Numbered from the stretch's first letter, positions 2,150-40,016 are shown. The stretch is DNA of 64,000 nt from Balanoglossus misakiensis (GCA_040954595.2 CM082579.2:12711834-12775833), one strand, 5' to 3'. Numbers and translations: made by a program. Notes: generated from the sequence alone by a model not told the origin.

Positions 2150-2188
<39 letters not shown>

Positions 2189-9327: not shown

Positions 9328-9366
9328 GTCTTGAAAAAATCGAAATCGAAATCAGAATATACCCTA

Positions 9367-19650: not shown

Positions 19651-21324
19651 ATGAAAATCAACGTCAACACCAGTACTCTAGGAACTCTTCAATGTCTACC
19701 TGGAGTGGGGCGGAAAATAGCCAAGGCGATTCTGCGATTACGTGAACGACATGGCTATGTAACATATGAGATGGTATGCAGTATTCCTAGGTTCAAAGCA
19801 TCCGAAGAATTCACGGAGATGGCCGACTTCGACCCACCAGGTGCTTCAGCCAAACCATCCATGAACACAACTACCCATCTCGCCCCGTTCTGGGAAGATG
19901 AGGAAGACAGCGGGAAGGATAGTGATGAAGATAGCATGAAGGAATGGATGGAAAGGATTGACAAGGTCACCAAAGAACGCGAAAGCAGACATGTTCAACG
20001 ACCTTCACGACATCAACAACCCAAAGCACCTATTCGATCGAGGCGATTTGACGAACCAGACTATACGCAGGATAGGGTAAGTCAACATCATACCGACTCT
20101 CGGGGGTATGATAGTTCATTCCATCCTGCGTACAGGCCAGATGCTCCTGCGTATGGTAGACCATATCCACGAAGTGTTCGCGATGAACAGCGATATGCGA
20201 CCTGGCCTGAAGATGAGCAGAATTATCGTCCATCACGGGTGAATGTGTCCAGACCACGAGCGGGTGCATCACCGGATTATTATGATGGCCATTATCCAAC
20301 AGAATTCGCTCCTCCCAGAACTCAACCCTACTACCAGCATGATAACCGGATGGACAGATCAAGTCATCGTCACATCCCAATGTCAGTTCCCAGGACGCTA
20401 ATCTACGATGGCTCCGGAAACTGGCAGGCATATCAGGTAAAATTCACGAAATTTGCCGAGATGCAGGACATGTCATTCAATGAATGCAAAAATTATCTGT
20501 GCTGGTGTTTAGAGGGGAAAGCAAGTGAAGTTTATACCAGGATCCTCCAGAAAAACGCAGACGTCAGCTATCACGAGCTGCTCAAAAAACTGGAGAAACG
20601 ATTTGGCTTGAAAGAGATTCCAGAATCCAGTCAGCTTCAGTTCGCCCAGATCCGACAAAACACCGAGGAGAAATTAGAAGAATGGGCGGACAGGGTTTAT
20701 TCACTTGCGATGCAGGCATTTCAAGAAAGCAGCGATGCCACCATAGAGCTTCAAGCTGTGATGCGCTTTTGCCAAGGATGTTGTGATCGAGAAGCAGGCC
20801 AATGGGCAGCAAATCAGCGTCCAACTTCCATCGAAGCAGCGATCGATACTGTCAAAAGATTCCAGTATAATCATCAAGCAATCTATGGCATCCGATCGCA
20901 GAGGCGGGAAGTACGATTTGTAAGTCCTGATCCGGAATACCCGAAAACCAACATCGAAGCACGATCTGTCTCCAGGTACGAGCGAAAACAATCACCCTCT
21001 CCTGAAAGAGCTCCCATCCGCCCGAGAGGCAAAGACGGAGGAACTGAGATGCAGGGGAGGATGTCGAGGCTGGAGACGCAGATGTCGGCAATCAGCGCAA
21101 CTTTGCAGACTGTCACCACCCAACTGGCCGAATTAACCAAAGTGGTGACAACGCAGCAGACATCAAGGTACCGATCCCCATCTCCGAGAAGCCGTGGTTG
21201 CTATGGGTGCGGCGAGATAGGCCATTTTAAGAGGGAATGTCCCCATGGAACATCAGAAAAGAAGGAAACAGCGCCGGCCAGTCCATTAAACACCAAAGGG
21301 TCAAGCCCAGAGGCCAAAGTTTGA
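19651..21324 (+). CDS. gag: Gag with N-terminal helix-hairpin-helix domain and C-terminal CCHC zinc knuckle (copy 1)
   Basis: KINVNTS..TLQCLPGVGRKIAKAILRLRERHG (ComEA/HHH_3-like); capsid-like YDGSGNWQAY..QNTEEKLEEWADRV; CYGCGEIGHFKREC. Confidence 0.9.
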   Translation: MKINVNTSTLGTLQCLPGVGRKIAKAILRLRERHGYVTYEMVCSIPRFKASEEFTEMADFDPPGASAKPSMNTTTHLAPFWEDEEDSGKDSDEDSMKEWMERIDKVTKERESRHVQRPSRHQQPKAPIRSRRFDEPDYTQDRVSQHHTDSRGYDSSFHPAYRPDAPAYGRPYPRSVRDEQRYATWPEDEQNYRPSRVNVSRPRAGASPDYYDGHYPTEFAPPRTQPYYQHDNRMDRSSHRHIPMSVPRTLIYDGSGNWQAYQVKFTKFAEMQDMSFNECKNYLCWCLEGKASEVYTRILQKNADVSYHELLKKLEKRFGLKEIPESSQLQFAQIRQNTEEKLEEWADRVYSLAMQAFQESSDATIELQAVMRFCQGCCDREAGQWAANQRPTSIEAAIDTVKRFQYNHQAIYGIRSQRREVRFVSPDPEYPKTNIEARSVSRYERKQSPSPERAPIRPRGKDGGTEMQGRMSRLETQMSAISATLQTVTTQLAELTKVVTTQQTSRYRSPSPRSRGCYGCGEIGHFKRECPHGTSEKKETAPASPLNTKGSSPEAKV

Positions 21325-24300
21325 CCCAACAACCCATAACCTATGGCCTCAACGCTTCCACGGAGGGCGATCGCAACTGTAATATTGACGTGCCATCGCC
21401 ATCATCTGAATCGGTAACACTTGATGTCAATACACATTGTGCAGATGTGTATACAACGACTATACCAACTCCAACTGATGATGGTACACATTGCGCAGAT
21501 GTGACCAACTCAACAGTGGAAGAGACAAAATCGTCAAAGACCAGTATGGCAACATCCGAAGCTAATGACATGCCTATGGTTGTCATTAACCAACTTGTGT
21601 CCAGTTCAATGTATAGCATCCCAGCAAAAATTGGAGACCAGTCCGCTACCGCTATCATCGATACCGCCGCAGAAGTCACTATTATCTCTGACCAACTGTA
21701 CAACAGTCTGCGAGTAAAACCTCCAATATTGCGGGAAGTTACCATGCAAACAGCTGGAAGACAGTTAACCATGAAAGCCAACCTGGTCGGACCCGTTGAC
21801 ATCCAGCTAGGACGTGCCGTCTTCAATGCCGATATATACGTAGCCCCAATAGGCGACGAAATGCTACTGGGAGTTGATTTCCTACAAGCAAATGGAGCAA
21901 CCATCAACATGAGTAACAACTGGCTCCATTTGGGGGAGGAAAACATACCTATGACCCTTGGACAGAGGGATCATTCACCAAAAGTGGCAAAGGTAACTTT
22001 GAAGCGACGGACAATCATCCCACCGAATAGTGTGGTCAGAATATCCTGTTTACTCGATACGGATCTAACCGACTATTTGGTAGAACCGACCCAGGGATTG
22101 AAAGTAATGATGCCCAGGACACTTCACTCGGGGGAACAATCACCTAAGGTTTGTTTAGTCAACCCGACGGAGAATTATATAACTCTGAACAGCAAGGATC
22201 CTATCGCATCAGCTACAGAAGTGGAGGTGATCACCGTCCCATCACCTGACAACCAACAGAGGACTGAAGTACGCCCTCAGCCGGTAGGCGGGCTACCTTC
22301 ACATTTAGGAAATCTGTTTGAAAGATCCTGCAGTCATCTTCAAGCAGATGAACAAACCCAACTACATAAACTTCTGTTCGATTACGAAGATGTTTTCGCC
22401 AAGGACGAATTTGATCTGGGAAATTTCACTGCAATCACACATAGCGTCGACACGAAAGACAATCCACCAATAAAGCAACGGCTACGGCGCACTCCAATGT
22501 GTTTTGCAGGGGAAGAAGAAGCCCACTTAAAGAAAATGCTGAATGCCGGAGTTATAAGGCCATCAATCTCCGAATGGGCTTCGGCACCAGTTCTAGTGCG
22601 AAAACGAGATGCAAGCGTGCGTTGGTGTGTGGATTATCGAGCCCTAAACAACATCACCGTAAAGGACGTTTTTCCGCTGCCATTGGTGGAGGATTGTATG
22701 GACACTCTATCAGGATGTCTATGGTTCTCCAAGTTGGACGCCAACTCGGCATACTGGCAGATAAGTATTAATCCACCCGACTGCAAGAAAACGGCTTTCA
22801 CCACCAAATACGGTTTGTACGAATTTACCCGAATGCCGTTTGGTCTGTGCAACGCACCTGCTACTTTCTCCAGAGTGATGAACCTAGTACTAAGGGGCCT
22901 AACTTGGGACATCGTACTGGCATTTCTGGATGATATAATGGTGCTCGGATCAAGCTTCGAAGAACACCTTAAAAATCTCCGGGAAGTCTTCAAACGACTA
23001 CGGAAGTACCAACTGAAACTCAAGCCAAGAAAGTGTGAGTTATTCCAACAGGAAGTAAGTTTCCTGGGTAGGAAAGTTGGTAGAAACAGAATATCTCTTG
23101 AAGATCAATCTATTCGGATGATCCAAGAATGGCCAATCCCTATCAACACGAAGGACGTGGAAAAATTTGCAGGATTTGCGAACTACCATCGCGCCTTCAT
23201 CAAGGATTATGCCAAGTTAGCGGTACCTCTGTACAGTGTAACCGGGAAGAAACCATTCGCCTGGGGGTATGAGCAACATCAAGCTTTTGAGGACATCAAG
23301 AAAGCACTCACCGCTGCCCCTGTTCTGACCTTGCCCAATACAAAGGATAACTTCATTCTAGACACGGATGCCTCAGACTTTGCCATCGGAGCTGAGTTAT
23401 CCCAGATACAGAACGGCAAGGAGAGGACAATTTCTTATGGAAGTTATGCCCTGACCCCTGAACAGAGACGGTACTGCACCACAAGAAAAGAATTGCTGGC
23501 AGTCGTAAGGTTCACCCGGCAGTTTCGATACTACTTGCTTGGTAATAAATTTCTGGTACGGACAGATCATCACAGTTTGCTATGGCTAATACGATTCAAA
23601 GAACCACAAGGCCAATTAGCTCGCTGGCTAGAAGAACTAAGCCAGTACAACTTTACTGTGCAACACCGACCAGGAAAACAACACATCAACGCCGACGCCC
23701 TGTCAAGATTACCCGAGCAAAGTGCCTGCACCAATTTTGAGCATGGAACAAAATTGGAATCCTTACCTTGCGGGGGATGCAACTATTGCAGCAGAGCACA
23801 TCGAAACTGGAGCCCGTTCATCAATGAGGTGGATGATGTAATTCCCCTTACCATGGCTGAACCCAGAAGCGAACACGGGAACAGCCAACTCCACCAAACC
23901 GAAGGGCCATATGGGGTGAACCAATGTACCGGTATCATGGACCCACAAATACAACCAGCAATTCAAGATGAAGAGACCTGGCCATGGGACCCTGGAGGTA
24001 ACTTGGGTCTATTAACTTGCTGCGGAATCACCCGTGACACAGTCCAGGACGAACTAATCGACGTGCCTCATTCGAACCTCGAAATTTCCCACTTTCCGGA
24101 TCCTGTACAAGTCTGCATACTATCCAGAGAGGATTCCACTAAACTGGGAACAGCCATCCTAGGATATTCTCACAAAGAATACCAACAGGCACAGCAGACT
24201 GATAAAACACTGGGGATTCTCATCACATGGCTTGAAACTGGGAAAGTTCCTGAGGAAGGAGAGCTGAGACTCTCCAGCCCTGCAGCAAAGAATTATTGGA

Positions 24301-25682
24301 TCAACCGTGACCTATACTTCATTGAGGAGGGAGTACTGTGGAGAAAGTCGGCCACAGATGAAAACACCAAACAACTAGTCATCCCTAATACCGTGAAAAA
24401 TGAAGTTATACGGTTGAATCATGATATTCCATCTTGTGGGCACCAGGGAATACAGCGCACTCAAGCCAGAATCAGGACCAAATACCATTGGTATAGGATG
24501 TCCCACGACATCCGCAAGTATGTCACAATGTGTGCAATTTGCAATCACAACAAGAAAGCACACAGACACCACCGACATCAGCTGACCCTATTTCATGCGG
24601 GGGCAGCGATGGAACGAGTTCACTTGGATTTCCTAGGGCCGTTACCCAAGACACCTCGGGGTAATGAGTATATCCTGGTAATGGTAGATCAATTCACCAA
24701 GTGGGTAGAATGTATACCGCTGCCAACACAAAATGCTGAGGAAACAGCACACGCCGCAGTAGCTGAATTCTTTACCAGGTTCGGGTATCCATTTGAAATT
24801 CACACTGACCAGGGAAGAAACTTTGAAAGTCAGTTATTTTCAGCGATTTGTGAGATTCTTCATATCCATAAAACAAGAACCACTTCTTACAGACCATCTG
24901 CTAATGGCCAGGCGGAACGGCAGAATCGCACTTTGATGAACGCAATCAGATGCTACATCAAGTCACAGAAAGAATGGGATAAATTTCTCTCACAGATCGC
25001 CGGAGCTCTCCGCTCTTCAGTCAACCGCAGCACTGGTTTTACGCCCAACCGGATGATGTTAGGTAGGGAAATAAACCAGCCCGCTGATCTTGTATTCCGG
25101 CCTCCCAGGACAAACACTGACCAATCTCATGAGGGGTATGTGTACGAATTGGAGGAGGCCATAATGAATTCTCATGAGACAGCGCGGGAAATACTGAAGA
25201 CCACGCAAGAAAGAATGAAACGTGATTACGACCTCCGAGTGAACAAGCAGTCCTTCAAGGTCGGGGATCCAGTATATCTGTTGGATACCGGATCCACGAA
25301 AGGCAAATGCCGAAAACTGTGCCCACCTTGGAAAGGACCAGGGGTCATCATCACCAAAATCACACCCTATCTCTTCCGCATCAAATTGCGAAGAGAGGTT
25401 TGGACCGCCCATCACGATCGGCTAAAGCTTTGCCAGGATAAAGAGCTTCCTCGCTGGATAGTAACCTTTAGGAAGACCTTACTTAAGGACAGCGCAGGAA
25501 TGGGTGAAGTATATTGCCTTTGCAGGAAACCTGATGATGGGAAACTTATGATCCAGTGTGATTATTGCTATGAATGGTTTCATGGAGCGTGTGTGAATGT
25601 TACACCAACCGAAATTAAGAAAAAAGCACTGTTTTCTTGTCCCAACTGCAAACCAAGCGAAATAAGCACAGTTTCAGTGTAA
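21237..25682 (+). CDS. pol: Intact Pol (protease, RT, RNase H, integrase, C-terminal PHD finger), copy 1
   Basis: IIDTAAEVT protease; WCVDYRALN, MPFGLCNAPATF, FLDD RT; DTDASD, TDHHSL, NADALSR RNase H; H-H-C-C, HLDFLGP, HTDQGRNFES, NGQAER integrase; YCLCRKP..MIQCDYCYEWFHGAC..CPNC PHD. Confidence 0.95.
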   Translation: MSPWNIRKEGNSAGQSIKHQRVKPRGQSLTQQPITYGLNASTEGDRNCNIDVPSPSSESVTLDVNTHCADVYTTTIPTPTDDGTHCADVTNSTVEETKSSKTSMATSEANDMPMVVINQLVSSSMYSIPAKIGDQSATAIIDTAAEVTIISDQLYNSLRVKPPILREVTMQTAGRQLTMKANLVGPVDIQLGRAVFNADIYVAPIGDEMLLGVDFLQANGATINMSNNWLHLGEENIPMTLGQRDHSPKVAKVTLKRRTIIPPNSVVRISCLLDTDLTDYLVEPTQGLKVMMPRTLHSGEQSPKVCLVNPTENYITLNSKDPIASATEVEVITVPSPDNQQRTEVRPQPVGGLPSHLGNLFERSCSHLQADEQTQLHKLLFDYEDVFAKDEFDLGNFTAITHSVDTKDNPPIKQRLRRTPMCFAGEEEAHLKKMLNAGVIRPSISEWASAPVLVRKRDASVRWCVDYRALNNITVKDVFPLPLVEDCMDTLSGCLWFSKLDANSAYWQISINPPDCKKTAFTTKYGLYEFTRMPFGLCNAPATFSRVMNLVLRGLTWDIVLAFLDDIMVLGSSFEEHLKNLREVFKRLRKYQLKLKPRKCELFQQEVSFLGRKVGRNRISLEDQSIRMIQEWPIPINTKDVEKFAGFANYHRAFIKDYAKLAVPLYSVTGKKPFAWGYEQHQAFEDIKKALTAAPVLTLPNTKDNFILDTDASDFAIGAELSQIQNGKERTISYGSYALTPEQRRYCTTRKELLAVVRFTRQFRYYLLGNKFLVRTDHHSLLWLIRFKEPQGQLARWLEELSQYNFTVQHRPGKQHINADALSRLPEQSACTNFEHGTKLESLPCGGCNYCSRAHRNWSPFINEVDDVIPLTMAEPRSEHGNSQLHQTEGPYGVNQCTGIMDPQIQPAIQDEETWPWDPGGNLGLLTCCGITRDTVQDELIDVPHSNLEISHFPDPVQVCILSREDSTKLGTAILGYSHKEYQQAQQTDKTLGILITWLETGKVPEEGELRLSSPAAKNYWINRDLYFIEEGVLWRKSATDENTKQLVIPNTVKNEVIRLNHDIPSCGHQGIQRTQARIRTKYHWYRMSHDIRKYVTMCAICNHNKKAHRHHRHQLTLFHAGAAMERVHLDFLGPLPKTPRGNEYILVMVDQFTKWVECIPLPTQNAEETAHAAVAEFFTRFGYPFEIHTDQGRNFESQLFSAICEILHIHKTRTTSYRPSANGQAERQNRTLMNAIRCYIKSQKEWDKFLSQIAGALRSSVNRSTGFTPNRMMLGREINQPADLVFRPPRTNTDQSHEGYVYELEEAIMNSHETAREILKTTQERMKRDYDLRVNKQSFKVGDPVYLLDTGSTKGKCRKLCPPWKGPGVIITKITPYLFRIKLRREVWTAHHDRLKLCQDKELPRWIVTFRKTLLKDSAGMGEVYCLCRKPDDGKLMIQCDYCYEWFHGACVNVTPTEIKKKALFSCPNCKPSEISTVSV
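21285..21350 (+). promoter_or_regulatory. Putative -1 programmed ribosomal frameshift signal (A_TTA_AAC + H-type pseudoknot); repeated at 31777-31842
   Basis: pol is in the -1 frame of gag. Heptamer 21285-21291, 6-nt spacer, stem1 gggtcaa/ttgaccc (21298-21304/21321-21327), stem2 gaggcca/tggcctc (21310-21316/21344-21350). Confidence 0.7.
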
Positions 25683-25717
25683 CCTCATCATGTCTCTTAT
25701 TCTTTCTTGTACAGATC

Positions 25718-28588
25718 ATGGACTCCCAGCGGTATCGCGGGGGACCTCGCCCTAAGAAGCAGCATATGACCTGGCAAGAAGTGGTGGAGGCAGACCGGAA
25801 ACGGATTCTGCTTCCACCACTCGACCTCACCTACGGCATCGGGCTGGCCAAGGTCACGCTCCCTGAAAAGGAGAGGATGCTGTTACGCCAGTATCAACTA
25901 GCATCTCGGAGAGGCCATTGGCATTGGGTGGAGACTACACGCCGCGAAGCCGATGTGATCTTCTCCGAGGAATGGCTGTACAAGCATCTTCTCCATCGGG
26001 ATCCGCATAAGAACAGGATCCCGCAACGGAAGTCCCGTCCCAGCAGTACCGTCACGTCTGGACCCTGCCGTGATGTTCGCCTACAGACGCAGCCCGATCT
26101 CCCGACTGTCAAGCACCTGCTGAAGAAGTCGGGGGAGACGGTTGTAGTAGAAGACACCATGCAAGGCAGGGACCCAGTCACCTCCATCGCCTCAACATCG
26201 CGGGCATCCTCACCCCGAAGAACATCGACACAACCATCTTCTGCAGCGCCCCGTGAATTGTACTCAGCAGTAGCTGCGCGGCGACCCCTGGCAGAGCCAC
26301 GGAGAAGTACCCCCCGTGAGCCACCACGAAAGACATCAAGTACAGCAGTGCTGTACAGTACCGCAGTAGCTGCGCGGCGACCCCTGGCAGAGCCACGGAG
26401 AAGTACCCCCCGTGAGCCACCACGAAAGACATCAAGCCAGCCACGGAGAGGAACGCAGAAGATGGCGGCCACTAAACCAAAGAAGCGAGAGCGGGGTGAG
26501 GAATCTCGTTTGGAGGTGACCATACAGCGTGACGGGAAGCGGCGGCGACGCTCCGTTGTATGGATGGCACAGGAGCCGAAGGGGGTGCCGAAGTCAAAGA
26601 CCACCACGACTGCGGCGACCAATTCCTGTAGGGGTAGAAGAAGCAGAATATCTACCAACAGCCGCTCATGTACCTGCCCTATTCCAGGATGTGGGCAGAC
26701 CTCCAAACGTCTCAAACGGCACTGCTTCTTCTACCATATCGACCCCCGTCTACAGGAAAACCCCCTTATCATGCAGACAGCTGATGTTACTCATGCCCTG
26801 CTGAAGCTGGCGGGCTGGGTTTTGGGCCCCAGAGGAACTGTGACCAAGCTGCTGGAGTACTTCCTGCAACATCACTTGGAAGAAGTCCCAGCATCCTCTG
26901 CGCTCACCGAAGCCAACTGTCTGATGATGAAGCGACTGTGCCAGACCAGCGGATGGGCCGTACCACGACGATTCTCGCTGCACCCACCGAATTCACCAGC
27001 CGTCCTGCTGCATTGGAGGATTCTCGTCATCCTCCTTTCGCACCTGACTGAGGAGCAGCGGGAAGCCTTCCAACCCGTGGTACCCCCAAGGGAGCATGGT
27101 GAGTCCCGGTCTCCCACCCCAGTGGCGGAGATCACCTCGCATTCACCATGTCATCCGATGCCGGAACTGGAAGGCCCCGAGGCAGAGCACGGAGATCCTC
27201 AGTCACCTACCCTTACGGGGGAGACTGTCTCCTGCTCGCCAAGTGCAGACCAGGAAATGGTAACAGAGAATCCTGAGGCAGATCACGGCGAGCCGCGGTC
27301 ACCTACCCCTAGGGGGGAGACTGGCTCCTGTGTCGACCAGGAAATGGTTTCCGAAAATGAAGGTGAGTTCCAATCTCCAACTCATGCGAGGGAGATCACA
27401 TATTCACCTGTAGCCTCAGGAAATAGTCCGATCCATGTGGAGGACGCACACCAAGACTTGGCAATGATTATAGGTATGGGAGAAATGGAACAACCTGTTG
27501 AATCCGTGATACAGGACTCCACGTCCCAGGGAATCTCATGGGGTGATCAAGTAGAGAAAGAAATTCCATTAGACTGTACTGAAAGGATCCCACAGGCTGA
27601 GCAACCTGTTGATCACGTGATACAGGACTCAGTCCCGATCCCACCATCAGAAATTGAGCTCCCGGTTGAATACGTGATACTGGACTCAATTACAATAGAA
27701 TCCCAAGCTGACCAACCTATTGAGCAAGAGTTACAGGGGACAGCACAGGATTATCTACAATCAGACAGTCTATTGGAAGCCATGGATTCCCACTTTCATC
27801 TTGACCGAACACTGGCTCGATTTCGCGGTAGGGACTGCCCTGCAACATCAGTAGCTTTGGTTAACTGGCATAATGGCCCAAGGGCGAATTTTCCTGTCAA
27901 CATCATTGGGGGCGTCGAGGTCTTTTGCGATCCGGAGTACTACCCCATGGATTTGAACCGGCCCAAAGGTTGGAGTATCGCCATCGGGATCCATCCAAGG
28001 AAAGCTCCAAGAGCCGACGAAAGGACCTTTAAAGCCCTCAAGCGGTTTGTCACGAGCACACAGGTAGCCGCCCTTGGGGAGGTGGGTCTCGACCGCACAG
28101 AGCCAAGTAAATACTGGAGCGCCCAAGACAGGGTTCTCTCTCGAGCACTTGCCATGTGTGTGCCTGAGAAACCCTTAGTCCTGCACATTAGAGGGCCATA
28201 TGGGGACCAGTATGGGTCAGATGTGCATTGCCAAGCATTGCAATTAGTACAGGAATGGTGTTCGCCACGGCAGAAAATACATATCCACAATTTTACTGGT
28301 ACGGTCAACACTGTTCAAAGGTGGTCGAAGCGCTTCAAGAATTGTTACTTCGGTTTCTCCATCACGACCACCAAATTTGACCGTTGCCAGATTCGAGCTT
28401 TGAAGGAGGTGCCCATCGAGCGTCTGTTAATCGAAACAGATTCGCCGTATCTTGGGGGCCCTCGTGATGTAACCAGTACTCCAGCTCTTATAGGGGATGT
28501 GGCCGTGGCTGTTGCTAACTCAAGGGGGACTGATCTAGTGCACCTTCTTGAAGCAACTGTCCGTAACACCAGACGTCTATATCACTAG
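25718..28588 (+). CDS. ORF3 (~956 aa): basic repeats, CCHH-like motif, acidic linker, C-terminal TatD DNase domain (copy 1)
   Basis: TatD motifs DSHFH, IGIHP, ALGEVGLD, PLVLH, IHIHNF, LLIETDSPY at ~27780-28588. The ORF lies between pol and the PPT/LTR. ATG 25718 follows a pyrimidine tract and AG. Confidence 0.88.
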   Translation: MDSQRYRGGPRPKKQHMTWQEVVEADRKRILLPPLDLTYGIGLAKVTLPEKERMLLRQYQLASRRGHWHWVETTRREADVIFSEEWLYKHLLHRDPHKNRIPQRKSRPSSTVTSGPCRDVRLQTQPDLPTVKHLLKKSGETVVVEDTMQGRDPVTSIASTSRASSPRRTSTQPSSAAPRELYSAVAARRPLAEPRRSTPREPPRKTSSTAVLYSTAVAARRPLAEPRRSTPREPPRKTSSQPRRGTQKMAATKPKKRERGEESRLEVTIQRDGKRRRRSVVWMAQEPKGVPKSKTTTTAATNSCRGRRSRISTNSRSCTCPIPGCGQTSKRLKRHCFFYHIDPRLQENPLIMQTADVTHALLKLAGWVLGPRGTVTKLLEYFLQHHLEEVPASSALTEANCLMMKRLCQTSGWAVPRRFSLHPPNSPAVLLHWRILVILLSHLTEEQREAFQPVVPPREHGESRSPTPVAEITSHSPCHPMPELEGPEAEHGDPQSPTLTGETVSCSPSADQEMVTENPEADHGEPRSPTPRGETGSCVDQEMVSENEGEFQSPTHAREITYSPVASGNSPIHVEDAHQDLAMIIGMGEMEQPVESVIQDSTSQGISWGDQVEKEIPLDCTERIPQAEQPVDHVIQDSVPIPPSEIELPVEYVILDSITIESQADQPIEQELQGTAQDYLQSDSLLEAMDSHFHLDRTLARFRGRDCPATSVALVNWHNGPRANFPVNIIGGVEVFCDPEYYPMDLNRPKGWSIAIGIHPRKAPRADERTFKALKRFVTSTQVAALGEVGLDRTEPSKYWSAQDRVLSRALAMCVPEKPLVLHIRGPYGDQYGSDVHCQALQLVQEWCSPRQKIHIHNFTGTVNTVQRWSKRFKNCYFGFSITTTKFDRCQIRALKEVPIERLLIETDSPYLGGPRDVTSTPALIGDVAVAVANSRGTDLVHLLEATVRNTRRLYH

Positions 28589-28710
28589 GGATCAATCTCG
28601 CCAAGACCATGAGGTTGGCAGATTGCAGGGGTGGGAAAAATACGTTAACTTCTCTAGCCTTTTGAGATCCCTAGGTTGACCATCCTGCCAAAAAAGAAAA
28701 GTGGGAAGAG

Positions 28711-28964
28711 TGTAGTAATTTGTGGGCTTCTGGCCGTTGGTGGCGCCCTGCTGTACAGGTGGGACGCCTCTGACGTAATTGCACTACGGAATGCCCTGCA
28801 CCTGTGCTACTGGTTTTTACCCACGTTTCTCAACTATCAGAACCAGAACGACCCGGACCAGCAGCAGAGCAACACGCGGACTGACGACCAGCCGAAACCT
28901 CTGTGGCCCGGAATATAAAGACAACCCGTAGTACCTACCAGGTTAGTAACCGGTATCTACTACA
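28711..28964 (+). repeat. LTR-A (254 bp), central shared copy, with PPT upstream and PBS downstream
   Basis: TGTAGTA...TACTACA termini; PPT aaaaaagaaaagtgggaagag ends at 28710; PBS TGGCGCTGCGA from 28967 (tRNA-Ser-like, tentative). No difference seen from 39202-39455. Confidence 0.95.
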
Positions 28965-30142
28965 ATTGGCGCTGCGACTTTTCAACCCTAGTGGGGAAAA
29001 GGTGAAAAAACTCCGTTGGTAACTTTTTGCCAATTTTTGAGGATAAGTAGTCGGAGTACTCGCTATCGTTAAAGTTGCGTCGCGGCTTTCCGCTTGAAAC
29101 TTATAGGAGTAGTGCGGACGCCCAAGTGCTTTCAGTTTTCAACACTTGCACCAAGAAACCGTCTTCATTAGTTTTTCTGGTGGGAGACAGAGAACTAGTG
29201 GAAGTCGAGAGAAAACTGGGAACGAATCTCCAGTTGTTCCGGTAAAGCTTGTAATATTTATTGAAGTTCGGACAGCTGGGGCCAAGTTCAAGAAATTCAG
29301 TGAGAGGAATTTTCCGCTACACTGTGCCGTTTTCTTTCTGTGCACGTTTCAAGGAAAAGTTTCACAACTTATTTCTGTGTTGTTTTACGTGTACTTTGTC
29401 TTACCGTATTTTTTGTGTGTACGGGCGAACTTCCGAACACGGCAAGGTAAGATTTGCAGTTATACTTCCTAGCCCGTTATACTGCCGTTGTGTGTGTACG
29501 GGTAGCTTGGAAAGTAACTTTCTGCTAATATTGGTGCCACCATTGCATTGACGAGGAAGCCATTTCGTCAAAGAAGCCATTTTTTGTGGCAGTTCTGTAC
29601 ACCGCACCTTTCGTCATAATTTTACGTACTTTTTGTGCGGACAAGTTCCAGCTTTCGGACTTGTCTTTTATCTGTTGTTTTACTTCTGAAAAGTTTCGCT
29701 TTAACAAATTCCGCTTTGTTTCGCATTTTTACTAGTTGTACCACACAGTATCAGTACAGAACTGTAATACCTCAGCAATTGGTAAGTGTTGAAACTGTTC
29801 AATTATTCGCTATATCAATAATATTTGGTGTCGCATTGTATTACTCAGTATTATTGCGAGTTTTATTATTGTGAGCCATTCCAATTATTGTATTGTTGAT
29901 ATCAGTCGTACTTATTATCACATTATATTACTCTGTATAATTGCGGGTTCTATTATTGTTGTGATATAATTGATTGGTCATTGTCATTGATTATTCTTGT
30001 GACAAACTGATCAATTTGGGTATTGCTCAGTAAATATTACGAGTAATATCACTTTGTTAAATATTACTCTGTCCTTGTGTGGGTAATATTTTCCGACAAC
30101 GGTATCTGCAACTTCCATCTCAATAATATCTAACGCGCCATC

Positions 30143-31816
30143 ATGAAAATCAACGTCAACACCAGTACTCTAGGAACTCTTCAATGTCTACCTGGAGTGG
30201 GGCGGAAAATAGCCAAGGCGATTCTGCGATTACGTGAACGACATGGCTATGTAACATATGAGATGGTATGCAGTATTCCTAGGTTCAAAGCATCCGAAGA
30301 ATTCACGGAGATGGCCGACTTCGACCCACCAGGTGCTTCAGCCAAACCATCCATGAACACAACTACCCATCTCGCCCCGTTCTGGGAAGATGAGGAAGAC
30401 AGCGGGAAGGATAGTGATGAAGATAGCATGAAGGAATGGATGGAAAGGATTGACAAGGTCACCAAAGAACGCGAAAGCAGACATGTTCAACGACCTTCAC
30501 GACATCAACAACCCAAAGCACCTATTCGATCGAGGCGATTTGACGAACCAGACTATACGCAGGATAGGGTAAGTCAACATCATACCGACTCTCGGGGGTA
30601 TGATAGTTCATTCCATCCTGCGTACAGGCCAGATGCTCCTGCGTATGGTAGACCATATCCACGAAGTGTTCGCGATGAACAGCGATATGCGACCTGGCCT
30701 GAAGATGAGCAGAATTATCGTCCATCACGGGTGAATGTGTCCAGACCACGAGCGGGTGCATCACCGGATTATTATGATGGCCATTATCCAACAGAATTCG
30801 CTCCTCCCAGAACTCAACCCTACTACCAGCATGATAACCGGATGGACAGATCAAGTCATCGTCACATCCCAATGTCAGTTCCCAGGACGCTAATCTACGA
30901 TGGCTCCGGAAACTGGCAGGCATATCAGGTAAAATTCACGAAATTTGCCGAGATGCAGGACATGTCATTCAATGAATGCAAAAATTATCTGTGCTGGTGT
31001 TTAGAGGGGAAAGCAAGTGAAGTTTATACCAGGATCCTCCAGAAAAACGCAGACGTCAGCTATCACGAGCTGCTCAAAAAACTGGAGAAACGATTTGGCT
31101 TGAAAGAGATTCCAGAATCCAGTCAGCTTCAGTTCGCCCAGATCCGACAAAACACCGAGGAGAAATTAGAAGAATGGGCGGACAGGGTTTATTCACTTGC
31201 GATGCAGGCATTTCAAGAAAGCAGCGATGCCACCATAGAGCTTCAAGCTGTGATGCGCTTTTGCCAAGGATGTTGTGATCGAGAAGCAGGCCAATGGGCA
31301 GCAAATCAGCGTCCAACTTCCATCGAAGCAGCGATCGATACTGTCAAAAGATTCCAGTATAATCATCAAGCAATCTATGGCATCCGATCGCAGAGGCGGG
31401 AAGTACGATTTGTAAGTCCTGATCCGGAATACCCGAAAACCAACATCGAAGCACGATCTGTCTCCAGGTACGAGCGAAAACAATCACCCTCTCCTGAAAG
31501 AGCTCCCATCCGCCCGAGAGGCAAAGACGGAGGAACTGAGATGCAGGGGAGGATGTCGAGGCTGGAGACGCAGATGTCGGCAATCAGCGCAACTTTGCAG
31601 ACTGTCACCACCCAACTGGCCGAATTAACCAAAGTGGTGACAACGCAGCAGACATCAAGGTACCGATCCCCATCTCCGAGAAGCCGTGGTTGCTATGGGT
31701 GCGGCGAGATAGGCCATTTTAAGAGGGAATGTCCCCATGGAACATCAGAAAAGAAGGAAACAGCGCCGGCCAGTCCATTAAACACCAAAGGGTCAAGCCC
31801 AGAGGCCAAAGTTTGA
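30143..31816 (+). CDS. gag: Gag with HhH and CCHC knuckle (copy 2)
   Basis: Protein identical to 19651-21324. Confidence 0.9.
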   Translation: MKINVNTSTLGTLQCLPGVGRKIAKAILRLRERHGYVTYEMVCSIPRFKASEEFTEMADFDPPGASAKPSMNTTTHLAPFWEDEEDSGKDSDEDSMKEWMERIDKVTKERESRHVQRPSRHQQPKAPIRSRRFDEPDYTQDRVSQHHTDSRGYDSSFHPAYRPDAPAYGRPYPRSVRDEQRYATWPEDEQNYRPSRVNVSRPRAGASPDYYDGHYPTEFAPPRTQPYYQHDNRMDRSSHRHIPMSVPRTLIYDGSGNWQAYQVKFTKFAEMQDMSFNECKNYLCWCLEGKASEVYTRILQKNADVSYHELLKKLEKRFGLKEIPESSQLQFAQIRQNTEEKLEEWADRVYSLAMQAFQESSDATIELQAVMRFCQGCCDREAGQWAANQRPTSIEAAIDTVKRFQYNHQAIYGIRSQRREVRFVSPDPEYPKTNIEARSVSRYERKQSPSPERAPIRPRGKDGGTEMQGRMSRLETQMSAISATLQTVTTQLAELTKVVTTQQTSRYRSPSPRSRGCYGCGEIGHFKRECPHGTSEKKETAPASPLNTKGSSPEAKV

Positions 31817-34800
31817 CCCAACAACCCATAACCTATGGCCTCAACGCTTCCACGGAGGGCGATCGCAACTGTAATATTGACGTGCCATCGCCATCATCTG
31901 AATCGGTAACACTTGATGTCAATACACATTGTGCAGATGTGTATACAACGACTATACCAACTCCAACTGATGATGGTACACATTGCGCAGATGTGACCAA
32001 CTCAACAGTGGAAGAGACAAAATCGTCAAAGACCAGTATGGCAACATCCGAAGCTAATGACATGCCTATGGTTGTCATTAACCAACTTGTGTCCAGTTCA
32101 ATGTATAGCATCCCAGCAAAAATTGGAGACCAGTCCGCTACCGCTATCATCGATACCGCCGCAGAAGTCACTATTATCTCTGACCAACTGTACAACAGTC
32201 TGCGAGTAAAACCTCCAATATTGCGGGAAGTTACCATGCAAACAGCTGGAAGACAGTTAACCATGAAAGCCAACCTGGTCGGACCCGTTGACATCCAGCT
32301 AGGACGTGCCGTCTTCAATGCCGATATATACGTAGCCCCAATAGGCGACGAAATGCTACTGGGAGTTGATTTCCTACAAGCAAATGGAGCAACCATCAAC
32401 ATGAGTAACAACTGGCTCCATTTGGGGGAGGAAAACATACCTATGACCCTTGGACAGAGGGATCATTCACCAAAAGTGGCAAAGGTACTCTGAAGCGACG
32501 GACAATCATCCCACCGAATAGTGTGGTCAGAATATCCTGTTTACTCGATACGGATCTAACCGACTATTTGGTAGAACCAACCCAGGGATTGAAAGTAATG
32601 ATGCCCAGGACACTTCACTCGGGGGAACAATCACCTAAGGTTTGTTTAGTCAACCCGACGGAGAATTATATAACTCTGAACAGCAAGGATCCTATCGCAT
32701 CAGCTACAGAAGTGGAGGTGATCACCGTCCCATCACCTGACAACCAACAGAGGACTGAAGTACGCCCTCAGCCGGTAGGCGGGCTACCTTCACATTTAGG
32801 AAATCTGTTTGAAAGATCCTGCAGTCATCTTCAAGCAGATGAACAAACCCAACTACATAAACTTCTGTTCGATTACGAAGATGTTTTCGCCAAGGACGAA
32901 TTTGATCTGGGAAATTTCACTGCAATCACACATAGCGTCGACACGAAAGACAATCCACCAATAAAGCAACGGCTACGGCGCACTCCAATGTGTTTTGCAG
33001 GGGAAGAAGAAGCCCACTTAAAGAAAATGCTGAATGCCGGAGTTATAAGGCCATCAATCTCCGAATGGGCTTCGGCACCAGTTCTAGTGCGAAAACGAGA
33101 TGCAAGCGTGCGTTGGTGTGTGGATTATCGAGCCCTAAACAACATCACCGTAAAGGACGTTTTTCCGCTGCCATTGGTGGAGGATTGTATGGACACTCTA
33201 TCAGGATGTCTATGGTTCTCCAAGTTGGACGCCAACTCGGCATACTGGCAGATAAGTATTAATCCACCCGACTGCAAGAAAACGGCTTTCACCACCAAAT
33301 ACGGTTTGTACGAATTTACCCGAATGCCGTTTGGTCTGTGCAACGCACCTGCTACTTTCTCCAGAGTGATGAACCTAGTACTAAGGGGCCTAACTTGGGA
33401 CATCGTACTGGCATTTCTGGATGATATAATGGTGCTCGGATCAAGCTTCGAAGAACACCTTAAAAATCTCCGGGAAGTCTTCAAACGACTACGGAAGTAC
33501 CAACTGAAACTCAAGCCAAGAAAGTGTGAGTTATTCCAACAGGAAGTAAGTTTCCTGGGTAGGAAAGTTGGTAGAAACAGAATATCTCTTGAAGATCAAT
33601 CTATTCGGATGATCCAAGAATGGCCAATCCCTATCAACACGAAGGACGTGGAAAAATTTGCAGGATTTGCGAACTACCATCGCGCCTTCATCAATGATTA
33701 TGCCAAGTTAGCGGTACCTCTGTACAGTGTAACCGGGAAGAAACCATTCGCCTGGGGGTATGAGCAACATCAAGCTTTTGAGGACATCAAGAAAGCACTC
33801 ACCGCTGCCCCTGTTCTGACCTTGCCCAATACAAAGGATAACTTCATTCTAGACACGGATGCCTCAGACTTTGCCATCGGAGCTGAGTTATCCCAGATAC
33901 AGAACGGCAAGGAGAGGACAATTTCTTATGGAAGTTATGCCCTGACCCCTGAACAGAGACGGTACTGCACCACAAGAAAAGAATTGCTGGCAGTCGTAAG
34001 GTTCACCCGGCAGTTTCGATACTACTTGCTTGGTAATAAATTTCTGGTACGGACAGATCATCACAGTTTGCTATGGCTAATACGATTCAAAGAACCACAA
34101 GGCCAATTAGCTCGCTGGCTAGAAGAACTAAGCCAGTACAACTTTACTGTGCAACACCGACCAGGAAAACAACACATCAACGCCGACGCCCTGTCAAGAT
34201 TACCCGAGCAAAGTGCCTGCACCAATTTTGAGCATGGAACAAAATTGGAATCCTTACCTTGCGGGGGATGCAACTATTGCAGCAGAGCACATCGAAACTG
34301 GAGCCCGTTCATCAATGAGGTGGATGATGTAATTCCCCTTACCATGGCTGAACCCAGAAGCGAACACGGGAACAGCCAACTCCACCAAACCGAAGGGCCA
34401 TATGGGGTGAACCAATGTACCGGTATCATGGACCCACAAATACAACCAGCAATTCAAGATGAAGAGACCTGGCCATGGGACCCTGGAGGTAACTTGGGTC
34501 TATTAACTTGCTGCGGAATCACCCGTGACACAGTCCAGGACGAACTAATCGACGTGCCTCATTCGAACCTCGAAATTTCCCACTTTCCGGATCCTGTACA
34601 AGTCTGCATACTATCCAGAGAGGATTCCACTAAACTGGGAACAGCCATCCTAGGATATTCTCACAAAGAATACCAACAGGCACAGCAGACTGATAAAACA
34701 CTGGGGATTCTCATCACATGGCTTGAAACTGGGAAAGTTCCTGAGGAAGGAGAGCTGAGACTCTCCAGCCCTGCAGCAAAGAATTATTGGATCAACCGTG

Positions 34801-36173
34801 ACCTATACTTCATTGAGGAGGGAGTACTGTGGAGAAAGTCGGCCACAGATGAAAACACCAAACAACTAGTCATCCCTAATACCATGAAAAATGAAGTTAT
34901 ACGGTTGAATCATGATATTCCATCTTGTGGGCACCAGGGAATACAGCGCACTCAAGCCAGAATCAGGACCAAATACCATTGGTATAGGATGTCCCACGAC
35001 ATCCGCAAGTATGTCACAATGTGTGCAATTTGCAATCACAACAAGAAAGCACACAGACACCACCGACATCAGCTGACCCTATTTCATGCGGGGGCAGCGA
35101 TGGAACGAGTTCACTTGGATTTCCTAGGGCCGTTACCCAAGACACCTCGGGGTAATGAGTATATCCTGGTAATGGTAGATCAATTCACCAAGTGGGTAGA
35201 ATGTATACCGCTGCCAACACAAAATGCTGAGGAAACAGCACACGCCGCAGTAGCTGAATTCTTTACCAGGTTCGGGTATCCATTTGAAATTCACACTGAC
35301 CAGGGAAGAAACTTTGAAAGTCAGTTATTTTCAGCGATTTGTGAGATTCTTCATATCCATAAAACAAGAACCACTTCTTACAGACCATCTGCTAATGGCC
35401 AGGCGGAACGGCAGAATCGCACTTTGATGAACGCAATCAGATGCTACATCAAGTCACAGAAAGAATGGGATAAATTTCTCTCACAGATCGCCGGAGCTCT
35501 CCGCTCTTCAGTCAACCGCAGCACTGGTTTTACGCCCAACCGGATGATGTTAGGTAGGGAAATAAACCAGCCCGCTGATCTTGTATTCCGGCCTCCCAGG
35601 ACAAACACTGACCAATCTCATGAGGGGTATGTGTACGAATTGGAGGAGGCCATAATGAATTCTCATGAGACAGCGCGGGAAATACTGAAGACCACGCAAG
35701 AAAGAATGAAACGTGATTACGACCTCCGAGTGAACAAGCAGTCCTTCAAGGTCGGGGATCCAGTATATCTGTTGGATACCGGATCCACGAAAGGCAAATG
35801 CCGAAAACTGTGCCCACCTTGGAAAGGACCAGGGGTCATCATCACCAAAATCACACCCTATCTCTTCCGCATCAAATTGCGAAGAGAGGTTTGGACCGCC
35901 CATCACGATCGGCTAAAGCTTTGCCAGGATAAAGAGCTTCCTCGCTGGATAGTAACCTTTAGGAAGACCTTACTTAAGGACAGCGCAGGAATGGGTGAAG
36001 TATATTGCCTTTGCAGGAAACCTGATGATGGGAAACTTATGATCCAGTGTGATTATTGCTATGAATGGTTTCATGGAGCGTGTGTGAATGTTACACCAAC
36101 CGAAATTAAGAAAAAAGCACTGTTTTCTTGTCCCAACTGCAAACCAAGCGAAATAAGCACAGTTTCAGTGTAA
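31729..36173 (+). pseudogene. pol: Pol copy 2, frameshifted just after the protease
   Basis: aaggtactctgaag (~32487) vs aaggtaactttgaag in copy 1: a 1-bp loss gives a stop at 32493. The rest (32523-36173) is open, with K>N and V>M changes. Confidence 0.9.
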
Positions 36174-36208: not shown

Positions 36209-39079
36209 ATGGACTCCCAGCGGTATCGCGGGGGACCTCGCCCTAAGAAGCAGCATATGACCTGGCAAGAAGTGGTGGAGGCAGACCGGAAACGGATTCT
36301 GCTTCCACCACTCGACCTCACCTACGGCATCGGGCTGGCCAAGGTCACGCTCCCTGAAAAGGAGAGGATGCTGTTACGCCAGTATCAACTAGCATCTCGG
36401 AGAGGCCATTGGCATTGGGTGGAGACTACACGCCGCGAAGCCGATGTGATCTTCTCCGAGGAATGGCTGTACAAGCATCTTCTCCATCGGGATCCGCATA
36501 AGAACAGGATCCCGCAACGGAAGTCCCGTCCCAGCAGTACCGTCACGTCTGGACCCTGCCGTGATGTTCGCCTACAGACGCAGCCCGATCTCCCGACTGT
36601 CAAGCACCTGCTGAAGAAGTCGGGGGAGACGGTTGTAGTAGAAGACACCATGCAAGGCAGGGACCCAGTCACCTCCATCGCCTCAACATCGCGGGCATCC
36701 TCACCCCGAAGAACATCGACACAACCATCTTCTGCAGCGCCCCGTGAATTGTACTCAGCAGTAGCTGCGCGGCGACCCCTGGCAGAGCCACGGAGAAGTA
36801 CCCCCCGTGAGCCACCACGAAAGACATCAAGTACAGCAGTGCTGTACAGTACCGCAGTAGCTGCGCGGCGACCCCTGGCAGAGCCACGGAGAAGTACCCC
36901 CCGTGAGCCACCACGAAAGACATCAAGCCAGCCACGGAGAGGAACGCAGAAGATGGCGGCCACTAAACCAAAGAAGCGAGAGCGGGGTGAGGAATCTCGT
37001 TTGGAGGTGACCATACAGCGTGACGGGAAGCGGCGGCGACGCTCCGTTGTATGGATGGCACAGGAGCCGAAGGGGGTGCCGAAGTCAAAGACCACCACGA
37101 CTGCGGCGACCAATTCCTGTAGGGGTAGAAGAAGCAGAATATCTACCAACAGCCGCTCATGTACCTGCCCTATTCCAGGATGTGGGCAGACCTCCAAACG
37201 TCTCAAACGGCACTGCTTCTTCTACCATATCGACCCCCGTCTACAGGAAAACCCCCTTATCATGCAGACAGCTGATGTTACTCATGCCCTGCTGAAGCTG
37301 GCGGGCTGGGTTTTGGGCCCCAGAGGAACTGTGACCAAGCTGCTGGAGTACTTCCTGCAACATCACTTGGAAGAAGTCCCAGCATCCTCTGCGCTCACCG
37401 AAGCCAACTGTCTGATGATGAAGCGACTGTGCCAGACCAGCGGATGGGCCGTACCACGACGATTCTCGCTGCACCCACCGAATTCACCAGCCGTCCTGCT
37501 GCATTGGAGGATTCTCGTCATCCTCCTTTCGCACCTGACTGAGGAGCAGCGGGAAGCCTTCCAACCCGTGGTACCCCCAAGGGAGCATGGTGAGTCCCGG
37601 TCTCCCACCCCAGTGGCGGAGATCACCTCGCATTCACCATGTCATCCGATGCCGGAACTGGAAGGCCCCGAGGCAGAGCACGGAGATCCTCAGTCACCTA
37701 CCCTTACGGGGGAGACTGTCTCCTGCTCGCCAAGTGCAGACCAGGAAATGGTAACAGAGAATCCTGAGGCAGATCACGGCGAGCCGCGGTCACCTACCCC
37801 TAGGGGGGAGACTGGCTCCTGTGTCGACCAGGAAATGGTTTCCGAAAATGAAGGTGAGTTCCAATCTCCAACTCATGCGAGGGAGATCACATATTCACCT
37901 GTAGCCTCAGGAAATAGTCCGATCCATGTGGAGGACGCACACCAAGACTTGGCAATGATTATAGGTATGGGAGAAATGGAACAACCTGTTGAATCCGTGA
38001 TACAGGACTCCACGTCCCAGGGAATCTCATGGGGTGATCAAGTAGAGAAAGAAATTCCATTAGACTGTACTGAAAGGATCCCACAGGCTGAGCAACCTGT
38101 TGATCACGTGATACAGGACTCAGTCCCGATCCCACCATCAGAAATTGAGCTCCCGGTTGAATACGTGATACTGGACTCAATTACAATAGAATCCCAAGCT
38201 GACCAACCTATTGAGCAAGAGTTACAGGGGACAGCACAGGATTATCTACAATCAGACAGTCTATTGGAAGCCATGGATTCCCACTTTCATCTTGACCGAA
38301 CACTGGCTCGATTTCGCGGTAGGGACTGCCCTGCAACATCAGTAGCTTTGGTTAACTGGCATAATGGCCCAAGGGCGAATTTTCCTGTCAACATCATTGG
38401 GGGCGTCGAGGTCTTTTGCGATCCGGAGTACTACCCCATGGATTTGAACCGGCCCAAAGGTTGGAGTATCGCCATCGGGATCCATCCAAGGAAAGCTCCA
38501 AGAGCCGACGAAAGGACCTTTAAAGCCCTCAAGCGGTTTGTCACGAGCACACAGGTAGCCGCCCTTGGGGAGGTGGGTCTCGACCGCACAGAGCCAAGTA
38601 AATACTGGAGCGCCCAAGACAGGGTTCTCTCTCGAGCACTTGCCATGTGTGTGCCTGAGAAACCCTTAGTCCTGCACATTAGAGGGCCATATGGGGACCA
38701 GTATGGGTCAGATGTGCATTGCCAAGCATTGCAATTAGTACAGGAATGGTGTTCGCCACGGCAGAAAATACATATCCACAATTTTACTGGTACGGTCAAC
38801 ACTGTTCAAAGGTGGTCGAAGCGCTTCAAGAATTGTTACTTCGGTTTCTCCATCACGACCACCAAATTTGACCGTTGCCAGATTCGAGCTTTGAAGGAGG
38901 TGCCCATCGAGCGTCTGTTAATCGAAACAGATTCGCCGTATCTTGGGGGCCCTCGTGATGTAACCAGTACTCCAGCTCTTATAGGGGATGTGGCCGTGGC
39001 TGTTGCTAACTCAAGGGGGACTGATCTAGTGCACCTTCTTGAAGCAACTGTCCGTAACACCAGACGTCTATATCACTAG
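36209..39079 (+). CDS. ORF3 with C-terminal TatD domain (copy 2)
   Basis: Protein identical to copy 1. Confidence 0.88.
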   Translation: MDSQRYRGGPRPKKQHMTWQEVVEADRKRILLPPLDLTYGIGLAKVTLPEKERMLLRQYQLASRRGHWHWVETTRREADVIFSEEWLYKHLLHRDPHKNRIPQRKSRPSSTVTSGPCRDVRLQTQPDLPTVKHLLKKSGETVVVEDTMQGRDPVTSIASTSRASSPRRTSTQPSSAAPRELYSAVAARRPLAEPRRSTPREPPRKTSSTAVLYSTAVAARRPLAEPRRSTPREPPRKTSSQPRRGTQKMAATKPKKRERGEESRLEVTIQRDGKRRRRSVVWMAQEPKGVPKSKTTTTAATNSCRGRRSRISTNSRSCTCPIPGCGQTSKRLKRHCFFYHIDPRLQENPLIMQTADVTHALLKLAGWVLGPRGTVTKLLEYFLQHHLEEVPASSALTEANCLMMKRLCQTSGWAVPRRFSLHPPNSPAVLLHWRILVILLSHLTEEQREAFQPVVPPREHGESRSPTPVAEITSHSPCHPMPELEGPEAEHGDPQSPTLTGETVSCSPSADQEMVTENPEADHGEPRSPTPRGETGSCVDQEMVSENEGEFQSPTHAREITYSPVASGNSPIHVEDAHQDLAMIIGMGEMEQPVESVIQDSTSQGISWGDQVEKEIPLDCTERIPQAEQPVDHVIQDSVPIPPSEIELPVEYVILDSITIESQADQPIEQELQGTAQDYLQSDSLLEAMDSHFHLDRTLARFRGRDCPATSVALVNWHNGPRANFPVNIIGGVEVFCDPEYYPMDLNRPKGWSIAIGIHPRKAPRADERTFKALKRFVTSTQVAALGEVGLDRTEPSKYWSAQDRVLSRALAMCVPEKPLVLHIRGPYGDQYGSDVHCQALQLVQEWCSPRQKIHIHNFTGTVNTVQRWSKRFKNCYFGFSITTTKFDRCQIRALKEVPIERLLIETDSPYLGGPRDVTSTPALIGDVAVAVANSRGTDLVHLLEATVRNTRRLYH

Positions 39080-39201: not shown

Positions 39202-39455
39202 TGTAGTAATTTGTGGGCTTCTGGCCGTTGGTGGCGCCCTGCTGTACAGGTGGGACGCCTCTGACGTAATTGCACTACGGAATGCCCTGCACCTGTGCTA
39301 CTGGTTTTTACCCACGTTTCTCAACTATCAGAACCAGAACGACCCGGACCAGCAGCAGAGCAACACGCGGACTGACGACCAGCCGAAACCTCTGTGGCCC
39401 GGAATATAAAGACAACCCGTAGTACCTACCAGGTTAGTAACCGGTATCTACTACA
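39202..39455 (+). repeat. LTR-A, 3' copy
   Basis: Follows the PPT and ends TACTACA, joined directly to the HINE microsatellite catacatacagacgc. Confidence 0.95.
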
Positions 39456-40016
39456 CATACATACAGACGCAACCGATCCCATAAGGTCCCATGGTATATA
39501 TGCCTATACCAATGGGACCTAAAAATATGATCATTGTCAACAGACTATTATGTACCTCTTACATATTGTGTCATATCTGTTTCATATCTCAATTATGTAT
39601 CATATCTACGTCACATCTACTTTCGATGACCAGACAAAAATACAAATTTTACACCTTACCTGATAATGATTGACGATATTGTCAAGTCGTTGCCTCAAAA
39701 GCTGACCCCTCTCTATGATGTACGATTTGGTATTCTTCATATACCAGTACATGTGTGTTTTGATGGAGGCCCCTGAAAATATAGATAAAAAGAAGGCAAA
39801 GAATAAAACTATTGTTTTCATTCTTACAAAGTTAATGCCTCTTATTGAAAAGTGATAAAACATGTTACAGAGATGAGAATACATTACAGTTGGTGTTATT
39901 TACACTTCAACTCAGTTTACAGAAGAGGTGGCAGTAGGAAAACGATTTATGACAGTGGGAAATTCATGCTAGGCCTATTTTTGGTCAGTGTGTTGTCGAG
40001 AACGTTTTCTTGCATC

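Follow-up and report, generated by a model that had tools for sequence, protein, structure and literature searches.

In errantiviruses and retroviruses, the gene that lies between pol and the 3' long terminal repeat (LTR) is env, whose spliced subgenomic messenger RNA (mRNA) is translated into a protein with a signal peptide and a membrane anchor. The Gypsy-type elements Juno and Vesta of bdelloid rotifers have in this slot a third open reading frame (ORF3) that is enzymatic rather than env-like, with intact catalytic residues and no membrane segment: it belongs to the DEDDy (RNase D-like) family of 3'-5' exonucleases and is family-specific, having been gained at least twice, as described in PMC5408684. 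We analysed a stretch of 64,000 nucleotides of Balanoglossus misakiensis (GCA_040954595.2 CM082579.2:12711834-12775833), called the window in what follows, which contains a Gypsy retrotransposon with an ORF3 of its own. The window element is like Juno and Vesta in all the traits of type, slot, catalytic residues and lack of a membrane segment, and its ORF3 also belongs to a 3'-5' exonuclease family, but this family is TatD, with a TIM barrel; moreover, the gene has been inherited with Pol across a clade, and its product has two additional conserved domains. The rotifer elements are the closest precedent: same slot, same broad chemistry, different fold.

BLAST comparisons to homologues divide ORF3 into three conserved parts, with low-complexity stretches between them:
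25718..28588, + strand: ORF3 of copy 1, 956 amino acids (ORF call and Pfam)
25775..26122, + strand: ORF3 domain A, about residues 20-135, conserved (BLAST to homologues), no Pfam match
26675..27073, + strand: ORF3 domain B, about residues 320-452, a C-C-H-H zinc-finger pattern and a helical part
27773..28585, + strand: ORF3 TatD domain, residues 686-956 (Pfam, structure model, Foldseek), class II (HxH) with TATDN2-type motifs

Beginning 35 nucleotides past the stop codon of pol (25682), the frame closes about 100 nucleotides short of the polypurine tract (PPT), between pol and the PPT/3' LTR, where an earlier note on this DNA had located it. Its sole Pfam match is TatD_DNase (PF01026), over residues 752-956, with an E-value of 9.7e-36 and 123.9 bits for a cut-off of 27. 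The structure predicted for residues 680-956, with a predicted local distance difference test (pLDDT) score of 94.4, is a TatD barrel, and the best Foldseek matches of the model are TatD structures (1j6o, E-value 4.8e-16, template modelling score 0.77): the profile search and the structure prediction that the note had proposed both arrive at TatD. The core set of a class II TatD is complete, with eight residues out of eight (H692, H694, H759, E788, H823, H857, E906 and D908), whose roles as metal and substrate ligands are described in PMC10085689, and every motif that the note had named as part of the metal-binding set is present. The note had also called the nuclease apparently active, which these residues, and the selection described below, suggest.

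Two other identities were considered and rejected. The hydropathy maximum over 19 residues is 1.38, and 1.25 among the first 40 windows, so that no signal peptide or membrane segment is evident by this measure; with an enzyme domain instead, and TatD as the only Pfam match, ORF3 is not env, as the note had maintained. Neither is it a DEDDy (DnaQ-like) exonuclease, since Pfam finds TatD only and the fold is the TatD barrel.

Upstream of ORF3 lie the two usual genes of a Gypsy element, the second of which ends with a chromatin-reader domain:
19651..21324, + strand: gag of copy 1, with an HhH motif, a capsid-like domain and a CCHC knuckle (Pfam HHH_3, PNMA, Retrotrans_gag, zf-CCHC)
21237..25682, + strand: pol of copy 1, open, with protease, reverse transcriptase (RT), RNase H, integrase and a C-terminal PHD finger (Pfam)

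A word-based search yielded 98 TatD-domain relatives, of which the named belong to bivalves, gastropods and sea urchins, and 188 representatives (clusters at 50% identity) reach an E-value of 1e-30 or better. Four clusters that were looked up have 52 to 209 members on many contigs, frequently truncated, as expected of transposon copies. The genomic context was studied in a sample made of contig L001 and of retrotransposon contigs within three genome entries, found among 380 genomes, the contigs being ranked by an integrase query that is blind to the presence of TatD. Contig L001 is an independent one with HhH-gag, pol-PHD and ORF3-TatD, whose Pol and TatD are respectively 52% and 39% identical to those of the window. 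Apart from L001, each of the 15 contigs in which the integrase match reaches the PHD finger has a TatD downstream on the same strand, and the question raised in the note, whether TatD homologues sit inside elements downstream of pol, is thus answered positively. Seen from the other side, 19 contigs have an element-type TatD (a class of our own, defined by profile score or by the presence of domain B, here with an E-value below 1e-40): pol lies upstream in 15 of them, and the remaining four are only 1.8-3.7 kb long. No TatD was found in 40 further Gypsy contigs, mostly the best ranked of 139 integrase matches; when the distance past pol was measured in 39 of them (L208 excluded), 14 were found to reach at least 1.8 kb, and TatD is in none of these 14. 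Most context contigs come from one genome entry, and the host range consequently rests on the named proteins.

Protein databases also keep traces of the elements. Two bivalve gene models, Mytilus P0029 and Magallana P0056, fuse pol pieces to TatD, and P0035, which its source labels a bacterial TatD hydrolase, is located in a Gypsy element (L173); a search for longer fused proteins returned none, which is weak evidence. When contigs from metagenomes, genomes and viruses were scanned by pattern, most matches were TatDs of bacteria, and a single element, L001, emerged; the viral contigs yielded no relative of the integrase. The prokaryote genome entries G374, G375 and G256 contain many eukaryotic retrotransposon contigs, with 123, 12 and 4 integrase matches.

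In a tree of 30 rows, the Pol proteins of 13 elements with both TatD and PHD, including that of the window, form a single clade (100/100); a quick Pol tree took in 50 rows. The distinct Gypsy lineage with a PHD-ended integrase, announced in the earlier note, is therefore well delimited, but only one of its two proposed marks holds: PHD does, while HhH-Gag is also present in L196, which lacks TatD. TatD itself extends to the more distant element L191, whose shorter ORF3 has domain B and TatD, and whose Pol has no PHD. Together with L190, L192 and L193, L191:7518-9032 belongs to a neighbouring lineage of Gypsy elements that have neither PHD nor domain A, and in which this shorter ORF3 is also under purifying selection. 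Third ORFs of other Gypsy elements open with a weak C2H2-type finger, or include either a BTB domain or the F protein of baculoviruses; they are found at the following positions:
L203:6672-7589, third ORF of another Gypsy element
L209:247-1386, third ORF of another Gypsy element
L222:4603-5655, third ORF of another Gypsy element
L225:1875-3380, third ORF of another Gypsy element
L229:7326-9089, third ORF of another Gypsy element
L232:6439-8865, third ORF of another Gypsy element

Across the clade, the TatD domain is under purifying selection and has descended with Pol. For the 14 elements with both genes, the TatD and Pol trees have 7 of 11 splits in common, and every conflict involves the long-branched L191; the five TatD splits with a bootstrap of at least 90 are all present in the Pol tree, without conflict, a result matched by none of 10,000 shuffles. 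The Mantel correlation between the two genes is 0.77 for the 14 elements and 0.67 without L191 (p 1e-4). The eight core residues are intact in all 25 element-borne TatD domains, at a mean amino-acid divergence of 62%. Protein searches gave 210 element-type domains, and in 171 of these the set is complete, truncated domains being scored as misses. The ratio of nonsynonymous to synonymous substitution rates (dN/dS) of the TatD domain was computed on pairs of relatives of the window element rather than within its own family. Of six unsaturated pairs, five give 0.13-0.15, and the sixth, which comes close to saturation, gives 0.05; in two close pairs the ratio is 0.13, with Fisher p-values of 2e-12 and 1e-8. 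Both comparisons had been called for in the note, which asked for a TatD tree against an RT tree and regarded a dN/dS near 1 as contrary evidence: TatD and Pol agree on the strong splits, and the ratio is nowhere near 1. By its position, its fold, its catalytic residues, its inheritance with Pol and the purifying selection, ORF3 is almost certainly a functional gene of the element.

Its resemblance to described TatDs is uneven. TATDN1, TATDN3 and the TatD, YcfH and YjjV proteins of E. coli share with ORF3 the fold and the two-metal site, but they are short single-domain cellular proteins, with DNA exonuclease or apurinic/apyrimidinic (AP) endonuclease activity and without CDP, according to PMC10085689. 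Human TATDN2 is closer, having a class II HxH site, an FCDP strand, the FPN insertion seen in most relatives, a long disordered N-terminus and a C-terminal TatD; it is, however, a cellular gene, and we found no zinc finger of the domain B type described for it in PMC10711561 and PMC10085689. In the alignment of eight TatDs published in the supplement of PMC10085689, DFCDP and YFPN occur only in human TATDN2, a reading of our own made from a PDF whose text splits the alignment columns. The window protein has VFCDP at 735. Among element-borne domains, 21 of 25 have the CDP motif, as do 155 of the 210 element-type domains and none of 215 bacterial ones. A tree of 58 rows, which left out three long-branched rows and part of the others in a set of 88 rows, separates the element domains and three TATDN2-like eukaryotic proteins from 24 bacterial rows (100/98); in this tree, a single origin of all element rows is not rejected by the approximately unbiased test (p-AU 0.25), nor is it established. 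From these motifs and this tree, the element TatD probably has a TATDN2-type origin.

As reported in PMC10711561, the preferred target of human TATDN2 is R-loop RNA, and the enzyme shows little activity as a DNase or AP endonuclease; its binding depends on its disordered N-terminus, it cuts hairpin RNA, and its activity on plain RNA:DNA duplexes is minimal. A figure legend on the Hox cluster of the giant squid lists a 'putative TATDN2' among transposon-like genes (PMC6962438), which might be an element-borne copy.

The N-terminal extension ahead of the TatD domain is 685 residues long, with basic and acidic low-complexity stretches: the one between domains A and B is basic (41 K/R against 14 D/E), the one between domain B and TatD is acidic, and the basic clusters upstream of domain B have a median of 7 K/R per 30 residues in 14 elements. 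These regions of variable length evolve fast, with a dN/dS of 0.3-0.7 in the linkers versus 0.13-0.19 in the domains. A profile found domain A in 17 related contigs. In domain B, the residues C, C, H and H are invariant across 72 aligned rows, and its model has a pLDDT of 90.8; no structural relative was found in BFVD and PDB with Foldseek, or among 48,161 chains with VIA-align (best Z 3.2), and no named Atlas family matched, an absence that does not show the fold to be new. Two divergent types of TatD protein with domain B were also observed: P0095-P0097, which have a zinc knuckle and belong to a cluster of 209 members, and P0098, P0226 and P0227, which fall near the TATDN2-like rows.

Expression of ORF3 can be discussed with two additional features:
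25690..25714, + strand: predicted splice acceptor, a pyrimidine tract and CAG, 3 nucleotides upstream of the ORF3 ATG
29444..29787, + strand: two GGTAAG sequences within the 5' leader of copy 2, candidate splice donors with a putative pairing to the acceptor

By pyrimidine content, the acceptor ranks first among the 304 YAG sites of the element. In 12 of 16 elements, a YAG lies at most 4 nucleotides upstream of the first ORF3 ATG, compared to 471 of 2645 background ATGs (17.8%; p 1e-6). These signals make it quite likely that ORF3 is produced from its own spliced subgenomic mRNA, in the manner of env: position and predicted mRNA are those of env, while the enzyme domain and the missing membrane anchor are not.

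The PHD finger at the C-terminus of pol (window 25488-25679) has its best matches in PHF2, PHF8, CXXC1 and SPP1, whose PHD fingers read histone H3 trimethylated at lysine 4 (H3K4me3), at R-loop-rich promoters. At three of the positions that we take to be those of the aromatic cage of PHF2-type readers, Y/F, M and W are kept in all 17 fingers (window, L001, L173-L189); the fourth is W in some fingers, D or H in others. The finger may target the integrase to H3K4me3 chromatin. Chromoviruses likewise end their integrase with a chromatin reader, in their case a chromodomain (PMC12440569).

What does such an enzyme do for the element? Our tentative reading, to which we give somewhat less than even chances when taken as a whole, is that ORF3 is a nuclear TatD nuclease, made from its own spliced mRNA, that benefits the element by breaking down the RNA strand in RNA:DNA hybrids (R-loops). 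Translated from this separate mRNA, it would enter the nucleus through its basic clusters, which are what points to a nuclear location; it would hold nucleic acid by means of domain B, with its zinc finger, and of the disordered basic stretch, just as TATDN2 uses its N-terminal region; and, if the analogy with TATDN2 extends to the substrate, it would remove RNA from R-loops formed either at target sites or on transcribed copies of the element itself. The resemblance of the PHD finger to H3K4me3 readers acting at R-loop-rich promoters fits this role. The earlier note had favoured roles in DNA processing: its nuclease domain in the env slot stands, but the TATDN2-type motifs, together with the low DNase activity of TATDN2, make those roles less likely than an RNA-directed one. 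In such roles, ORF3 would be a 3'-5' single-stranded DNA exonuclease or an AP endonuclease, trimming complementary DNA (cDNA) ends, opening damaged sites or processing integration gaps. It keeps all class II metal ligands, and most characterised TatDs have such activities (PMC10085689); nevertheless, with motifs of the TATDN2 type, a gene placed outside a Pol whose integrase and RNase H motifs are intact, and other Gypsy lineages that do without it, as in the 14 contigs that continue for 1.8 kb or more past pol, we consider DNA processing unlikely. The intact RNase H motifs also led us to reject ORF3 as a stand-in for a dead RNase H.

Counter-defence, in which ORF3 would degrade small RNAs, their precursors, or immunostimulatory RNA or cDNA of the element, thereby weakening silencing or innate sensing, seems to us rather unlikely as well. 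A separate and regulable gene, not a domain of Pol, would suit it, as would linkers of variable length that evolve faster than the conserved domains, the cutting of hairpin RNA by TATDN2 (PMC10711561), and the silencing-related role raised for the rotifer DEDDy ORF3s (PMC5408684); selection on the TatD domain, however, is purifying, not diversifying. Should the target be a nascent-RNA hybrid, counter-defence overlaps partly with R-loop removal. It is very unlikely that the TatD fold persists solely to bind nucleic acid, or is a recent capture not yet decayed: catalytic residues are missing in some database relatives, and the window copies are too young for selection to show, but the 25 element-borne domains all keep the eight residues in spite of their divergence, with a dN/dS of 0.13-0.15, and descend with Pol. 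Purifying selection and this common descent reject a recent passenger. A restriction factor or toxin directed against competing elements, viruses, or cells without the element is highly improbable, even though a nuclease with a separate mRNA could conceivably act in trans: the element has no partner antidote gene, and related families coexist, many of them together in G374, which has 16 contigs with element-type TatD.

Several observations weigh against an R-loop nuclease of TATDN2 type. The window protein has FKN for FPN, with 20 of 25 element-borne domains fitting a looser pattern, and N instead of the usual C following H857; the L190-L193 lineage has VFP where others have CDP. The TATDN2-like rows of the tree (P0229, P0230 and P0300) were so labelled by ourselves, and are placed without resolution at the base of the group; a protein search aimed at named TATDN2 returned none, and the tree was built without TATDN1 and TATDN3. 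The ORF3 TatD is 17-24% identical to solved TatDs, and with such a distance from every characterised one, its substrate could have changed. At least one core residue is missing in 39 of the 210 element-type database domains, in some through truncation, and some have lost several; of the 17 contigs that have domain A, 5 show an ORF3 interrupted between this domain and TatD. The splice acceptors are predictions from sequence. The minimal activity of TATDN2 on plain RNA:DNA duplexes argues against a helper role in reverse transcription, and the presence of TatD without PHD in L191 implies that a link to promoter targeting is not required.

We now turn to the remainder of the window element, which is present in two tandem copies:
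28691..28710, + strand: polypurine tract (sequence)
28711..28964, + strand: LTR common to both tandem copies, 254 bp, TGTAGTA...TACTACA (sequence comparison)
28967..28977, + strand: primer-binding site TGGCGCTGCGA, identical in L001, L168, L175 and L176
30143..31816, + strand: gag of copy 2 (ORF call)
31729..36173, + strand: pol of copy 2, with a frameshift near 32,490 that breaks the frame
36209..39079, + strand: ORF3 of copy 2, identical to ORF3 of copy 1
39202..39455, + strand: 3' LTR of copy 2, identical to 28711-28964

In the element, gag is followed by a pol that runs from protease through RT and RNase H to integrase (Pfam), and there are TG...CA LTRs, a tRNA primer site and a polypurine tract, all characteristic of Ty3/Gypsy (Metaviridae). 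The primer-binding site TGGCGCTGCGA is presumably of the tRNA-Ser type. Membership in Troyka, which is defined by CG...CG termini (PMC12440569), was rejected since the termini here are TG...CA.

The two copies are 99.95% identical and have a single LTR between them in common; copy 1 is without its 5' LTR, its primer site and about 170 nucleotides. The 1.1 kb that precede copy 1 (17544-18644) are the same as the 1.1 kb that follow copy 2 (39456-40557), a pattern suggestive of an empty and a filled site brought together, either by a haplotype join in the assembly or by a genuine rearrangement. Contigs from two DNA runs of one sample, possibly the source's own, cover the element; among the sequencing runs listed as containing it, none is of RNA. 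As for a target-site duplication, expected to be of 4-6 bp in Ty3/Gypsy, the outer 5' LTR is missing from the window and the flank is a (CATA)n repeat. Identical LTRs imply a very recent insertion or duplication, and the two copies are counted as a single event, one recent insertion or an assembly join. Consequently, although ORF3 is identical in both copies, as the earlier note had remarked, this identity is not independent evidence and says nothing on selection.

Other mobile elements were seen in the window. A second, unrelated Gypsy element at 40017-49288 has broken ORFs and no TatD; its LTRs, 1.5 kb long and 94% alike, contain tandem arrays of 101 bp and 88 bp. On the minus strand, at 868-9351, ORFs that match a ZSWIM RNaseH-like domain (weakly), DUF6589, RVT_1 and a CXC domain are probably nested mobile elements.

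No paper describing TatD in an LTR element turned up in our literature searches, which did not extend to Repbase, Dfam, GyDB or most supplementary files, and the word TatD is absent from the main texts of PMC12440569, PMC5408684, PMC6238403, PMC13524379 and PMC6431247. The few accessory enzymes known from LTR retrotransposons are joined here by a new class. The TatD gene is not a one-off capture, as its descent with Pol under purifying selection indicates. It also carries a warning for annotation, element-borne TatDs being mislabelled (P0035) or fused with pol in bivalve gene models. One may speculate further, though we hold the complete picture to be doubtful, that an ancient Gypsy clade of molluscs and echinoderms encodes an R-loop RNase of the TATDN2 type that is fused to a zinc-finger domain whose fold is undescribed, and that would serve against silencing or to clear targets, in partnership with an H3K4me3-reading integrase at active promoters; many genes annotated 'TatD' or 'TATDN2' in marine invertebrates and in symbiont assemblies would then be genes of such retrotransposons. 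If ORF3 is indeed an R-loop RNase, the success of a retrotransposon would be tied to the control of R-loops, and these elements would provide a compact test system for TATDN2-type enzymes.

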